DNA of 64,000 nucleotides, from the NCBI GenBank assembly GCA_965217585.1, contig OZ244561.1, positions 4,352,001-4,416,000 of the forward strand, written 5' to 3'. Every line of letters begins with the position of its first letter. The first letter of the stretch is position 1. Positions 52,620 through 57,254 of this stretch are shown piece after piece. This DNA is from Candidatus Latescibacterota bacterium (lineage in GTDB: Bacteria; Latescibacterota; UBA2968; UBA8231). The position numbers and the translations under genes are program-made. The notes under the pieces were generated by a model. It had not been told where the DNA came from. It saw only the letters and a program-made list of their open reading frames with translations, and made no database searches.

Positions 52620-53633
52620 TCACGCGCTTTTAGTACCGTTAATCACAAACTTTTTTGTTGCCTCCTCAATGTGGATCATAGGAAATGCCTCATCCCGAAT
52701 TTGGTTCCACAATTTCATATATATTTTATGGCCAATAACTTGGAGGACGTCTGGAGCAGCAGTATTTTCCTTAAAACTATCTGTGCCATATCCCACAATT
52801 ACACCGCAATGATTAGACAGAACATAGCGATTATGAAAAGGATGGTTTCCTTTTTTTATTTCTATATTGTTCTCGATCTGCCACACAAAAACCTTTACAG
52901 ACTCCCCTATTGGTATTAAGTGTGTGTAGTGCTGTTTAAGGCTGTTCTCATTAATTTTCTCTGGAACATCTGGACAGCAATGAATTGTCAGTGATGGAAA
53001 AGGATAATCTGTTGTGTCATACTGTTGGGCTAAGTCTTTGATAATCTTTTTGTAATTTCTGGTAAACAAACTGTCACTATCCACGTTAAAATATCTATCG
53101 ATAAAGTGAATATTCTCAGCAATCCGAAGCATTGGCAGGATAGCCTTTACGAAATCTCCAGGACTACGAGTGATTGCAATACCACTAGGTGTATTCCAGG
53201 CTTTTACATTTCTATTGAGTTCGTCAGGATGGTATTTTCGTCTTTCATCGTCAGCTCTCTCAGCATCAGCCTCTTCGTATTCAGGGCTGACGACGGCAGA
53301 AAAAGGCTCTCGTCGGTGCTCTTTCTCTATTTCGGTAATCCAAGAAAATTGTGAAAAATCATCATAATACCAATCAGTCCAAACAGTTCCTGGTCGATCT
53401 ACCAGTTGGCCCCTCACCATGTTCAGGCGGTCTTTCAAACCTTGCGCTTTTATGGTTGGAAGGTCAAGTTCTTGAACGAGTTGATCAAAAATCGGTTTCG
53501 CATTTTTATACCACTGGCCATATGGCAAATCTGCAATTACACGTCCTTGTGATGGATGACAGTGCTCAGTGCAATATCGGAACCACTCCAAATTTCGACA
53601 TATTTCTGGATCAATAGCAAAGATACTCAGCAT
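52620..53633 (-). CDS. Uncharacterised low-GC protein, partner of the adjacent ATPase (possible PLD-like nuclease)
   Basis: Starts 2 bp after the ATPase stop; IHFIDRYF and HPFHNRYVLS...G.G.D motifs. Confidence 0.7.
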   Translation of the reverse strand: MLSIFAIDPEICRNLEWFRYCTEHCHPSQGRVIADLPYGQWYKNAKPIFDQLVQELDLPTIKAQGLKDRLNMVRGQLVDRPGTVWTDWYYDDFSQFSWITEIEKEHRREPFSAVVSPEYEEADAERADDERRKYHPDELNRNVKAWNTPSGIAITRSPGDFVKAILPMLRIAENIHFIDRYFNVDSDSLFTRNYKKIIKDLAQQYDTTDYPFPSLTIHCCPDVPEKINENSLKQHYTHLIPIGESVKVFVWQIENNIEIKKGNHPFHNRYVLSNHCGVIVGYGTDSFKENTAAPDVLQVIGHKIYMKLWNQIRDEAFPMIHIEEATKKFVINGTKSA

Positions 53634-53635
53634 AA

Positions 53636-55108
53636 TTAATACCACTCCGACTCACGTTCTTCGAAAAAGCCTTCTGGCCATGGTGCATCAAAATCGCCGT
53701 TATTCGTTACAGTGAGTGGAGTGAATTTAACTCCTGCTGGCGTTAGTCGAACATAGATCACAGACAGATCGTTAGGCGTCAATTCGTGATCTGTCTGTTC
53801 TGATTCAGTGGTTTGGTATCTGCTACGACGGGTCGTTTCACGCACACGCCGTAGCAACCGCAACAGCAAGTGCTCAGAATGCGTTTCGATGAGCATGATA
53901 CGATCCGGGCTTTGTATGCCATCAATAAACAAATCGCCCAAACCTACTTGAACCGATGGATGAACATGAAGCTCTGGTTGTTCAACCGCAAACATTTTAG
54001 GGCTATGGTAACCTTGGTCTAACGCACCCACGAGAACTGGAAAGACTTGGGAAATGCCAAAACCAACATCTAAGGGATGTACCTCTATGCCGCTGTTTTC
54101 ATCCTGAAGTAGAATCGGATGTTGGCGAGGTAGCAGTTCAAGAGGTTTGAGAACTTGCTTTGTTAACCTATCGACTTCTACTCTGTCTTCATCAGAGGAG
54201 CAAATTTTTCTCAGATTTGCTATACCTTCGTTATTCCAATCAAGAGAAGATCTGTCTGACTGTAGGAAGCTATATCCAAGTGCCAACTTTTGAGCATAGC
54301 GGTTTACTTTTTCGGCCAACTCGGAGTCCCGTGCGAGTGCATCCCAAGCCTCTAACCCGGTTGCCCACCGAGATTCATTGTACATTTGGGATACAAGATA
54401 ATTGCGAGGGGGCACTTCTCGGATTGGGCCCAGATATCGGATGCCATTTAATTTTTCTCGAACGTAGCTTAATTCATCTCCTCTCATAATTTCATTGAAC
54501 TCGCTTGAGATCATATAGTCTTCTTTTGCCTCTTTTACAATTGAAGAATTCTTATTTACAAAATATCGATATCCTTTTTCGTCATGTTTGCCGTCATGTC
54601 TAGAATAACCAATACCCCACCACTGATTAAGCGGATACAGTTGTTGGCCTTTATCATGATTGGATTTTCCTTTGTCATTCAAAGCATAAAAGCATTCTTC
54701 GCCATTCAAAGCATATATGTATGACTCGACAGAAGCAATATCTTGTGTTTCGTCCCAGCTCACTACCAATTCTATCTCCGCAGAATTATATTTAAGTTTG
54801 CTTGCATATGATAGGTCAAACTCAAGGCGTATACGGATTTTTCGATTCAGGTCGTGGCGATGCACTAAGGAAGGAAAATCACCTAGATCAATAGGTATGT
54901 TTTCCAGAGGTCTGTACCCCGATCGTATATCAAATAGATAGCCTTGGTGGAAACGTAGAAATAGTTCGCGCATGTAGAGCAATGCCTGCAACACCGTTGA
55001 CTTGCCCGAACTATTTTTGCCAAACAACAAGGTGAGAGGGCGAATAGGAATGGTCACGGCGTCGCCGATACACTTAAAGTTTTCTATAGTGATAGATGCA
55101 AGAGCCAT
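53636..55108 (-). CDS. AAA_15/AAA_21-type ATPase with DUF3696-like C-terminus
   Basis: IENFKCI, GKNSSGKS, YLGPIRE, VGFGISQVFP, VEQPELHVHP, IETHSEH and WPEGFFE motifs. Confidence 0.9.
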   Translation of the reverse strand: MALASITIENFKCIGDAVTIPIRPLTLLFGKNSSGKSTVLQALLYMRELFLRFHQGYLFDIRSGYRPLENIPIDLGDFPSLVHRHDLNRKIRIRLEFDLSYASKLKYNSAEIELVVSWDETQDIASVESYIYALNGEECFYALNDKGKSNHDKGQQLYPLNQWWGIGYSRHDGKHDEKGYRYFVNKNSSIVKEAKEDYMISSEFNEIMRGDELSYVREKLNGIRYLGPIREVPPRNYLVSQMYNESRWATGLEAWDALARDSELAEKVNRYAQKLALGYSFLQSDRSSLDWNNEGIANLRKICSSDEDRVEVDRLTKQVLKPLELLPRQHPILLQDENSGIEVHPLDVGFGISQVFPVLVGALDQGYHSPKMFAVEQPELHVHPSVQVGLGDLFIDGIQSPDRIMLIETHSEHLLLRLLRRVRETTRRSRYQTTESEQTDHELTPNDLSVIYVRLTPAGVKFTPLTVTNNGDFDAPWPEGFFEERESEWY

Positions 55109-55147
55109 GATTTTCTCACAAGTTGGTGAATGAATGCTAAAAACGTC

Positions 55148-55205
55148 TGTCTGTGCGTGAGTGATAATTGCGCCAGTACGCTATCCAATTCACTCCGCAC
55201 AGACA
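55148..55205. other. Long inverted repeat (stem-loop) upstream of the ATPase
   Basis: TGTCTGTGCGTGAGTGA...TCACTCCGCACAGACA. Confidence 0.7.
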
Positions 55206-55554: not shown

Positions 55555-55699
55555 AGCCTTACCTCCTTTCAGATAGATTTGCGGCACTCCATCTGCTTCT
55601 CCCAAGCATCTCCGGCTCTTCCGGTTCACGGGACGGCTTCACACGCCTTTCCCGCCCGCGGCCTTCTTTGCCTCCCAACCTCGCCGCTGCCTACATAAA

Positions 55700-55714
55700 G
55701 CACATTTTGTGCCA
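55700..55714 (-). promoter_or_regulatory. Sigma-54 (-24/-12) promoter
   Basis: TGGCACAAAATGTGC fits TGGCAC-N5-TTGC spacing (one mismatch); lies 44 bp downstream of a sigma-54 activator gene. Confidence 0.8.
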
Positions 55715-55757
55715 AACTTATCTGAAAGGCGAAATAGCTCTAGATTTTCCTCCTTCT

Positions 55758-57254
55758 TTATACCTTGTACTTCTTCTTCCAGTTGTCAAACGTCTGACGA
55801 TTAGACAGTCCCAACCGTTCTGCGGCTTCTGTTTTCGTTGTAGATTCCTCCTCGGCACGCTGAAAATAGTGTCTGATGACTTCGCTAATGAGCTCATTTA
55901 TGCTAAAACCCCCACCTAATGGGCGATTCAATATATCTTCGCCCCCCTTATCGTAGATGGGTAAGAATGCCCCTTCAATATCTTGTTTTTTGAGAATTTC
56001 GCCGTCTGTCCACACCATTGCGCGCCTAAGCGTGTTTTGCAACTCGCGTATATTGCCCGGCCAAGGGTGATTCAGGATAAGATTTTTTGCGCCAGCGGAA
56101 ATTTTTTTACGTCGGTACCCAGGCTGTTCCTTGCTCTCCTCATTGATCTGCTCGATCAAATGGTCGATCAGCAGACCCAAATCCCCCGGACGGTCCCTCA
56201 AGGGCGGCAATTTGAGATAGGCCACTGCAATCCGATAAAACAAATCCTCTCGAAATCGTCCTTCACGCACTTCCTCACTGAGCGTCCGGTTTGTTGCCGC
56301 TACAATTCGTACATCTACACTGATAGGTTTGGATGCACCGAGGCGGTCAATCTGGCCTCCTTCGAGGACGCGCAACAATTTAACCTGTATATCTTTAGGT
56401 AACTCGCCGATTTCATCCAAAAAGAGCGTACCGCCGTTGGCCAACTCAAAACGACCTTTGCGCGGGGCCTTTGCGTCGGTAAACGCGCCTTTTTCGTGCC
56501 CAAACAGTTCGGATTCCACGAGAGTTTGCGGAATTGCACCGCAGTTCACGGGGATAAATGGCTTATCTCTTCTAGGGCTGTGTTGGTGAATGGCGCGGGC
56601 AAAAAGTTCTTTTCCGGTGCCGGATTCGCCTTCTAGCAAAACGGGAACGTTCCGCAACGCGACGCGCTGCGCTCTCTCGACCAGATGAGCCATAATCGGA
56701 CTTCGGTAGTGTATGTCTGCAAAATTTGCCGACTCTATGGGTTTCTCTGCACTGACCGAGCGGAGCCGCTCGTCGGGTTTGAGCAGAAGGTCGGGCAAAA
56801 ATTCTGCCGAAATATCGAAGGGGACAGATACCGTTTGAACGCCGTATTCTCTTGAAGACTCGATCAATTCAGCGGGAAAGCGAGTTTTCGCTAAGATGAT
56901 CCACACCGCGGCCATTGCTGGCGTACCAGCACTAAGGTGAAAAGTCAATTCCACTTGATCGCGCTGTTCGCCCAAAGCCGCTGTGCAAACGCGCACCGCC
57001 GCCTCATAGATTTCGCCAAAGTGAGTCGGACTTGAAAGCTTCTCCTCATATAATTGGTATGGCGTCGAGCTCCGTTTCTTTGCCCATTCGACGTACGCGG
57101 GTACACGGTCATCGGACAGGTAGTTTGAAATCAGAAATACCTCGTCAAACCCGAGCTTTTCCACCGCCTGTGCAGTAGGACCCTCACCAACATCATCTCC
57201 TTGTGAAGCACGCAAATCTGTAGTGCTGATCCAGCACAGCAAAACTTTTTTCAT
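55758..57254 (-). CDS. Sigma-54-dependent enhancer-binding protein with RtcR/CARF-like N-terminal domain
   Basis: GESGTGKE, ESELFGHEKGAFTDA, LFLDEIGE, WPGNIREL and a C-terminal HTH; N-terminus W...TD...FHLSAGTPAM with no receiver Asp motif. Confidence 0.9.
   Translation of the reverse strand: MKKVLLCWISTTDLRASQGDDVGEGPTAQAVEKLGFDEVFLISNYLSDDRVPAYVEWAKKRSSTPYQLYEEKLSSPTHFGEIYEAAVRVCTAALGEQRDQVELTFHLSAGTPAMAAVWIILAKTRFPAELIESSREYGVQTVSVPFDISAEFLPDLLLKPDERLRSVSAEKPIESANFADIHYRSPIMAHLVERAQRVALRNVPVLLEGESGTGKELFARAIHQHSPRRDKPFIPVNCGAIPQTLVESELFGHEKGAFTDAKAPRKGRFELANGGTLFLDEIGELPKDIQVKLLRVLEGGQIDRLGASKPISVDVRIVAATNRTLSEEVREGRFREDLFYRIAVAYLKLPPLRDRPGDLGLLIDHLIEQINEESKEQPGYRRKKISAGAKNLILNHPWPGNIRELQNTLRRAMVWTDGEILKKQDIEGAFLPIYDKGGEDILNRPLGGGFSINELISEVIRHYFQRAEEESTTKTEAAERLGLSNRQTFDNWKKKYKV

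Follow-up and report, generated by a model that had tools for sequence, protein, structure and literature searches.

A probable antiviral defence module in a Latescibacterota genome, headed by a CARF-type sigma-54 activator and carrying an NsnB/NsnC-like gene pair

RtcR-like CARF/NtrC-AAA+/HTH (helix-turn-helix) proteins that are unlinked to Rtc often occur beside restriction-modification (R-M) systems, and the sections of Makarova 2014 (PMC4012209) that deal with them predict that they are sigma-54 activators sensing infection ligands. RtcR homologues also head the defence (CoCoNuT) superoperons treated in Bell 2024 (PMC11090510), where they are predicted to switch on defence genes via sigma-54. 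In the parts of both papers devoted to these proteins, the sigma-54 dependence is inferred and the promoter is not located; their supplements may list such loci. We found no experimental test of a ligand-gated sigma-54 switch before defence genes in the literature searched. Here we describe a locus of this type in a 64,000-nucleotide stretch of the genome of Candidatus Latescibacterota bacterium (assembly GCA_965217585.1, contig OZ244561.1, positions 4,352,001 to 4,416,000), hereafter called the window. The module occupies ~4.68 kb of the minus strand, from the partner gene (p3) to the activator gene. Its order, taken from the list of open reading frames (ORFs) and the sequence, is activator, a 649-nt gap with two short ORFs, ATPase and p3 (Table 1). 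All of these elements lie where an earlier note on this DNA had placed them. We consider it probable that this is an antiviral defence module, exchanged horizontally and gated at the level of transcription, that joins a CARF-sigma-54 head to an NsnB/NsnC-like pair without NsnA. The earlier note had presented it as a candidate new system, but the concept was already predicted in the two papers cited above (in the parts mentioned); what is new is that the promoter abuts the stop codon in several phyla, that small-ORF cassettes are present, and that a pair lacking NsnA is under predicted CARF control.

The gene pair resembles two other described systems. Menshen (NsnABC) is an antiphage system (Millman 2022, as cited in PMC12065111). 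Section 18 of PMC12065111 describes the domain 'PB-PLD1', which has the PLD fold, as MIT_C does, and is marked by an HDR motif and by an acidic residue that follows strand 2. According to the same account, PB-PLD1 occurs as an NsnC effector and at the C-terminus of BrxL, and the tails of NsnB are modelled as clamping NsnC. HEC-03 is described (bioRxiv 10.1101/2024.01.29.577857) as an experimentally validated two-gene defence system of an ABC ATPase and a partner, in which both genes are needed.

Table 1. Features of the module, with positions counted from the first letter of the window.
Feature	Position	Strand	Basis
Whole module	52605..57287	-	Empty-site alignments of same-genus genomes; drop in GC content
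RtcR-like CARF-AAA+-HTH sigma-54 activator, 498 aa	57254..55758	-	PADLOC, Pfam and NCBIfam profiles
Sigma-54 -24/-12 box, TGGCAC-N5-GTGCT	55714..55699	-	Consensus match; conserved position
Small ORF A, 24 aa, hydrophobic core and basic tail	55554..55480	-	Shine-Dalgarno (SD) sequence GGAGGT; conserved in relatives
16-bp hairpin downstream of ORF A, with a U-rich run behind it	55466..55431	-	z -5.73 against shuffles; covariation
CTTGACA (-35-like) just past the post-A hairpin	55417..55423	-	Present in 13 of 14 aligned copies
Small ORF D, 29 aa, amphipathic/hydrophobic, net charge +5	55362..55273	-	SD AGGAGAGG; copy in locus L096
Strong hairpin with U-run ~40 nt before the ATPase start, terminator-like	55205..55148	-	-31.3 kcal/mol, z -6.6
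NsnB/HEC-03-like ABC ATPase, 490 aa, weak SD	55108..53636	-	Pfam and PADLOC profiles
Partner p3, 341 aa, C-terminal domain probably PLD-fold (MIT_C / PB-PLD1-like)	53645..52620	-	Start overlaps ATPase stop

The activator matched the PADLOC model RtcR_PspF2--CARF_AAA_HTH (PDLC01995) with an E-value of 5.4e-189, residues 2-498 being aligned with positions 1-480 of the 481 in the profile. Its N-terminus also matched other PADLOC models of CARF domains (CARF4, 2.2e-11; Csx1/Csm6, 1.1e-7), and the N-terminal domain is therefore CARF-like as judged by profiles. Searches of the PDB with the CARF domain sequence and with a 15-sequence CARF profile gave no match below an E-value of 0.1. In Pfam, residues 183-347 matched Sigma54_activat (4e-71) and a match to AAA_lid_14 (7.4e-19) was obtained; residues 1-180 had no Pfam match and there was no receiver domain, consistent with the enhancer-binding protein without a receiver that the earlier note had recognized. 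The Walker A (GESGTGKE) and Walker B (LFLDEI) motifs are present. In the loop that contacts sigma-54, GAFTDA stands in place of GAFTGA. The genome contains rpoN (1.6e-60) and 21 sigma-54 activators, among which the activator of the window is the only one that covers the CARF part of the model (profile positions 1-130).

The protein shares the CARF-AAA+-HTH architecture and, by prediction, the action through sigma-54 of RtcR in the RtcR-rtcBA systems of E. coli and Salmonella. RtcR is also its best NCBIfam model (1.2e-99, residues 60-427 aligned), but the score of 334.6 bits lies below the equivalog cut-off of 650, no RtcB was detected in the genome by a PF01139 search (genome completeness 94.6%), and the putative targets are not repair enzymes. 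In agreement with the earlier note, the locus is thus not a canonical Rtc locus.

Relatives of the activator were sought with its CARF part alone, because a scan of genome contigs with the whole activator mostly drew other sigma-54 activators via the AAA+ domain; a single locus (L001; L-numbers denote the collected loci) was a full-length match in that scan. Two overlapping samples of genomes were searched, and the CARF part had relatives in 24 of the 61 genomes of one and in 33 of the 168 of the other. The box counts below cover 33 genome loci (32 relatives and the window) and the metagenome loci whose activator is complete and followed by 100 nt or more of sequence.

As the earlier note had described, the -24/-12 box begins 44 nt after the activator stop codon. 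It has one mismatch to TGGCAC-N5-TTGCW (10 of the 11 consensus positions), its GG and GC doublets are ten bases apart, and transcription is predicted to start near 55688. The window alone does not rise above chance, with 3 boxes against 2.26 expected. Nevertheless, the promoter assignment is well supported because the position of the box is conserved across loci. With a threshold of at least 10 of the 11 consensus positions, a box was found just after the activator gene in 25 of the 33 genome loci (19 of 21 in the first batch, which includes the window, and 6 of 12 in the second, where the box of L116, in the equivalent position, matches at 9 of 11). Among the metagenome loci it was found in 44 of 68, and 41 of these boxes lie within -50 to +25 nt of the activator stop, most of them beginning 1-5 nt past it; for comparison, 18 boxes were counted in 630 kb of the opposite strand of these loci. 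Where small ORFs are lacking, the box stands 50-230 nt before the start of the ATPase or HsdR gene with nothing between, and loci with several cassettes have further boxes ahead of the second and third ATPase genes.

Tandem ATPase-p3 cassettes, each with its own sigma-54 box, occur in L103, L106, L117, L118 and L119. At these secondary promoters, ~150 nt upstream of the box are conserved, including an A/T-rich tract and a second TGGCAC-like half-site ~65 nt upstream. This conserved stretch may be a binding site of the activator. L097 (~4400..4490) has a duplication of ~20 nt within the final codons of its activator gene, immediately ahead of the promoter.

The module is a discrete unit of insertion and deletion. 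Its GC content is 0.37-0.55 versus 0.58-0.67 in the flanks, the genome-wide value being 0.595. We compared the window with four genomes of the same genus that lack the activator and keep the flanking PhyH gene, and the module was missing from the corresponding site in three of them. In two (L127 and L128), the alignment to the window stops at 52604/52608 and restarts at 57288/57284, so that yefM-yoeB is present and 52605..57287 is absent. In the third (L130), 52598 is joined straight to 57949 and the PhyH gene abuts an Rrf2 gene, window positions 52599..57948 being absent. The fourth genome matches the window at PhyH only and differs beyond it, and therefore shows no empty site.

Genomes that bear the module share 90-93% identity in the flanks and 80-91% in the activator gene. 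Identity is 84-87% over the first ~150 nt of the ATPase gene, whereas the remaining part of the ATPase gene and p3 cannot be aligned or show ~70% identity in patches. The p3 gene of the window is nearest (79% nucleotide identity) to copies from another genus. Thus, the unit shows presence/absence polymorphism at a fixed site, a hotspot, and its cargo has been swapped between genera.

The conserved 5' end of the ATPase gene (window 54960..55108, minus strand) recurs in the loci L095-L119, where the first ~50 codons show 80-88% protein and 84-87% DNA identity even between genera. In the same genera, the activator has merely 72-74% DNA identity and the remaining ATPase ~36-48% protein identity. 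This 5' end looks like a handle for cassette exchange by recombination.

The hotspot has a separate variable occupant, yefM-yoeB (57412..57935, plus strand; YoeB_toxin, 7.2e-37), which two genomes of the genus have although they lack the activator module, and which is missing from most module-bearing genomes; yefM stands alone, without yoeB, in L095 and L099. The earlier note had speculated that YoeB could generate RNA ends with a cyclic phosphate. We rejected YoeB as the source of the CARF ligand on conservation, as among 113 loci only the window has yoeB and 3 have yefM, and the pair also occurs where the module is absent. A second stretch of low GC content (~0.50-0.53) was seen at 46000..47600 of the window.

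The earlier note had described a low-GC AAA/DUF3696 ATPase closely coupled to an unknown protein. In profile searches, the ATPase matched AAA_15 (1.7e-21), AAA_21 (2.6e-13) and, at its tail, DUF3696 (0.0013; 19.4 bits, below the cut-off of 22) in Pfam, and the models PDC-M55A (1.5e-45), NsnB (3.6e-39, residues 3-486) and HEC-03B (2.6e-34) in PADLOC. Fifteen homologues show no variation in the Walker A motif, a signature-like GxGxSQ, the Walker B motif EQPE or the H-loop. A second AAA_15-like ATPase frame, which matches the ATPase profile weakly (E 2.4e-11), lies at 63153..64000 on the minus strand and is cut by the window end, and five further paralogues are found elsewhere in the genome.

The p3 gene comes after an ATPase gene in 27 of the 32 copies in the loci collected; the other five are accounted for by overlapping starts or gene interruptions. 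A search among 1.84 billion representatives yielded 425 relatives at E<=1e-3. An ATPase-p3 pair without any activator is located on a Deinococcus plasmid, adjoining McrBC-like genes. The N-terminal half of p3 is variable, whereas the C-terminal half contains an invariant Asp (FIDPxF), His and Arg (HNRY/HDRY) and Gly; the family consensus is FVDPYF ... HNRYxLTDxGG and the copy in the window reads FIDRYF ... HNRYVLSN. The PLD superfamily of the MIT_C / PB-PLD1 type is marked by an acidic residue that follows an early strand and by an H-x-R/K motif with Asp seven residues further on. Pfam MIT_C matched 2 of 18 relatives of p3, the best over most of the domain at 9.9e-5 and 22.7 bits, below the cut-off of 25. 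In PADLOC, 4 of 101 relatives matched BrxL and 1 of 101 matched NsnC (0.004), and p3 reached no threshold for NsnC. In the PDB, p3 and its C-terminal profile found nothing below an E-value of 0.1. Based on the motifs and these matches, the C-terminal half of p3 is probably an effector domain of the PLD fold (MIT_C / PB-PLD1-like).

A weak match to the C-terminal profile of p3 (E 2.4e-4 to 6e-4 among 27,651 frames) was observed in the last 120 residues of a 1690-aa frame with an N-terminal AAA_22/AAA_16 (STAND-like) region (L213:1231-6300; C1:6726230-6731299 of the same genome, plus strand), and hints at a portable effector domain.

The pair can be compared with the systems introduced above. 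As in Menshen, the ATPase matches the NsnB model and combines AAA_15 with a DUF3696 tail, the latter just under its cut-off. NsnC has a PIN-like N-terminal adaptor and a C-terminal effector domain; p3 has a variable N-terminal half, and its C-terminal half has the D...H-D/N-R signature described for PB-PLD1. In contrast to Menshen, no NsnA (DUF262/ParB) gene lies within the 4.68-kb module, and the CARF activator is in its place. The layout of an ABC ATPase and an effector is the same as in HEC-03 and PDC-M55, and the ATPase matches both models. However, the partner in HEC-03 is a VapC-like PIN protein, p3 matches no PADLOC partner model, and neither HEC-03 nor PDC-M55 is described with a sigma-54 activator in the sections of the source that introduce them.

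In some relatives, the box is followed by the same ATPase and a p3-family gene, but the most frequent cargo is a type I R-M system (Pfam ResIII/HSDR_N/EcoEI_R_C, N6_Mtase/HsdM_N and Methylase_S). L111, for example, has HsdR/HsdM/HsdS. In the metagenome loci, 45 of the proteins encoded first or second downstream fall into clusters with HsdR and 30 into clusters with HsdM; the ATPase is directly downstream of the activator in L175, L192 and L194, and is the fourth gene, after R-M genes, in ~9 loci. Apart from these, the cargo was a methylase-specificity-AAA fusion (L113), or else a histidine-kinase-type ATPase protein, TPR protein, SF1 helicase or SNF2/NOV_C protein, and a Polaromonas plasmid has the activator ahead of DUF4258, VWA, PP2C, kinase and AAA genes. 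The activator has the domain architecture of the RtcR_PspF activators found by R-M and defence genes, and like them it is not linked to rtcBA and stands at the 5' end of co-directional defence genes. The module differs from those loci and from CoCoNuT loci in its cargo, which is the NsnB-like ATPase with p3 and not R-M or CoCoNuT genes, and in the lineage-specific small ORFs and hairpins between promoter and cargo. In one metagenome locus (L135:1961-4696), the type I HsdR directly after the activator promoter has an N-terminal Peptidase_S24 (LexA-like) domain (1.4e-7).

The leaders of this lineage contain four families of small ORFs led by SD sequences, designated A to D; the two peptide ORFs that the earlier note had marked belong to A and D. 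Family A (24 aa) is present in the window and 11 further loci, and in every case it is the last small ORF ahead of the ATPase gene. Its start and frame are kept, the length is 24 aa in 7 of 9 compared copies, and the C-terminal end is most conserved. The changes at codon positions 1, 2 and 3 number 172, 96 and 164 (the compared pairs are not independent); position 2 has the fewest, which fits a hydrophobic peptide. Family A is probably coding. Family B has 22-28 aa. Family C (52-53 aa, net charge +13) is coding, with clear purifying selection across its whole length: 129 synonymous and 57 non-synonymous codon changes were counted, and 133 differences fall at codon position 3, compared with 38 at position 1 and 43 at position 2. 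In a set of 5.8 billion proteins, the family is called as a gene and makes up 19 unnamed clusters. Family D (29-32 aa) was found in the window and L096 only, the two copies being 86% identical. The small ORFs matched no Pfam, NCBIfam or PHROGs family, have no second copy within the genome and were absent from 80 metagenome loci. These families are missed by annotation pipelines.

Peptides A and D each have one strongly hydrophobic 13-residue stretch (mean Kyte-Doolittle hydropathy of 2.69 for the best in A) and a basic tail, and they look membrane-active. TisB, Ibs and Hok-type proteins are type I toxin peptides. A and D resemble them in their length of 24-29 aa and in having one hydrophobic helix with a basic tail. 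However, no antisense RNA gene is evident in the region, where promoter and terminator scans stay at chance level, and A and D are predicted to be under an activator-dependent promoter and not to form a toxin-antitoxin pair.

In an alignment of 14 copies of the hairpin after ORF A, 14 pairs are kept with 94.3% of the cells paired, and compensatory changes occur at 7 pairs (reached by 1 in 500 shuffles). The many G-U pairs on the sense strand point to an RNA structure. Together with its U-rich run, the hairpin was flagged as terminator-like; it begins 14-24 nt past the stop codon of A, and in one genus it is followed by A-runs instead of U-runs. The hairpin before the ATPase gene is retained in L096 (-32.3 kcal/mol) despite base changes in both arms. 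The hairpin after ORF B is highly conserved in sequence, has one compensatory change and lacks a U-run. The earlier note had proposed peptide ORFs with strong SDs separated by hairpins; the SDs and the two hairpins in Table 1 hold up, whereas the sequence that follows peptide D shows no significant structure (z -0.83). Its proposal of a structured leader did not stand either, as the promoter-proximal 134 nt gave a z of -1.29 and 22 of 200 shuffles folded as well. Rfam gave no family for the region, its sole match (mir-1228, E 0.31) being at chance level. Attenuation by a ribosome stalled at the stop codon of A was considered and judged unlikely on account of the 14-24 nt that separate it from the hairpin.

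For the module as a whole, we propose the following course of events. The CARF domain would keep the AAA+ ring off until a signal of infection or damage is bound. Because the module contains no NsnA-type DNA sensor, sensing would sit in the CARF activator. Once switched on, the activator would remodel sigma-54 RNA polymerase at the box directly after its own stop codon. The transcript would first encode the small proteins A and D, hydrophobic and basic and presumably translated efficiently, each followed by a stable hairpin, and would then reach the translationally coupled ATPase-p3 pair, probably by partial read-through. By analogy with Menshen, Septu and PARIS, the ATPase may hold or release the effector p3, and the released effector would attack nucleic acid, or possibly the membrane, and thereby stop the phage or the cell.

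Several observations weigh against this reading. At the 10-of-11 threshold, 8 of the 33 genome loci have no box after the activator, and one family of relatives (L114, L121, L123 and L126) combines this lack with enolase-like and GH3 genes. The p3 protein of the window matches no family in Pfam, PADLOC, NCBIfam or the other libraries used, and at the position seven residues past the His it has Asn in place of the Asp of the family, although the conserved Asp, His and Arg are kept. GAFTDA was found in 9 of the 74 CARF activators scanned, and the contact loop is polymorphic among close relatives, L096 having GAFTGA. A transcript from the promoter would meet two terminator-like hairpins before the ATPase gene, with CTTGACA after the first. 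We know of no ligand for the RtcR_PspF2 subfamily of CARF domains. Furthermore, according to the passages of Makarova 2014 (PMC4012209) that compare them, nucleotide-binding CARFs typically have a basic residue that is missing from most CARFs of the RtcR type.

The four loci with enolase-like and GH3 genes have a sigma-54-like box on the opposite strand, ~1.8 kb downstream.

The small ORFs might instead be translated leader elements and not effectors, their translation and the hairpins gating read-through or mRNA stability so that the output of the ATPase-p3 pair follows the translation state of the cell. Every small ORF has its own strong hairpin after it, ORF A always directly precedes the ATPase gene and is best conserved at its C-terminal end, and the SDs of the small ORFs are strong while that of the ATPase is weak, all of which would suit such a role. 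However, purifying selection over the whole length of family C (52 aa, +13) is not needed for a pure leader, the hairpin after A is estimated to be too far from the stop codon for a terminating ribosome to melt, and the post-B hairpins have no U-runs. We therefore regard this alternative as rather doubtful, but as one to be taken seriously.

A division into two transcription units is another alternative. The CARF/sigma-54 head would then drive the small ORFs only, ending at the post-A hairpin, and the ATPase-p3 pair would be constitutive under its own sigma-70 promoter (CTTGACA with a -10 box). The terminator-like hairpin with its covariation fits this arrangement, as does the existence of the activator-free pair on the Deinococcus plasmid. 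Because CTTGACA is nearly invariant after the hairpin, the ATPase pair may have its own promoter too, and because two terminator-like hairpins and CTTGACA precede the ATPase gene, the pair may be transcribed mainly alone. From our reading of the alignment, a -10-like T-A-x-x-x-T follows CTTGACA at 17 nt in several relatives, but the candidate in the window is poor. Moreover, the loci without small ORFs, in which nothing stands between the box and the ATPase or HsdR gene, the A-runs in one genus, and the second strong hairpin between CTTGACA and the ATPase gene in the window all argue against it. Overall, we consider separate units unlikely.

Two further alternatives are improbable. The locus could serve an Rtc- or Psp-type stress or repair response to RNA damage or membrane stress and not be antiviral. 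PspF-type activators control membrane-stress genes, and both the RtcR match in NCBIfam and the membrane-active appearance of peptides A and D are in line with such a role; the lack of a detectable RtcB, the R-M systems and defence-type ATPases behind the activator in relatives, and the polymorphism and cargo swapping at the hotspot argue against it. The switch could also have decayed here if the G-to-D change in the contact loop, a site polymorphic among close relatives, prevents GAFTDA activators from contacting sigma-54 and leaves the module silent or dependent on read-through, but GAFTDA occurs in at least four separate loci with intact genes and a promoter box (the window, L097, L101 and L116) and all ORFs of the module in the window are intact.

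A more elaborate form of the antiviral module is a speculation that we hold only tentatively and think rather unlikely to be correct in full. In this form, the CARF activator would have replaced the NsnA of a Menshen-type system, and one promoter would give a response in two stages. A burst of small proteins (membrane-active A, B and D and the very basic C), acting as first-wave effectors or as triggers of the ATPase, would be followed by hairpin-limited read-through to the ATPase and the PLD-like effector. The promoter fused to the stop codon of the activator would make the activator a portable 'induce-on-infection' head for any defence cargo. If this is true, the portable head could also precede type I R-M systems, which are usually thought to be constitutive.

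Most known antiphage systems are treated as constitutive sensors, and a ligand-gated sigma-54 switch was predicted in 2014 and 2024. The locus described here offers a compact test case of 4.7 kb with a mapped candidate promoter, and its natural relatives bear the same head before other cargo, type I R-M among it. It also adds four conserved families of small ORFs missed by pipelines. Finally, an NsnB/NsnC-like two-gene pair that is predicted to work without NsnA bears on how Menshen-type ATPases are triggered.

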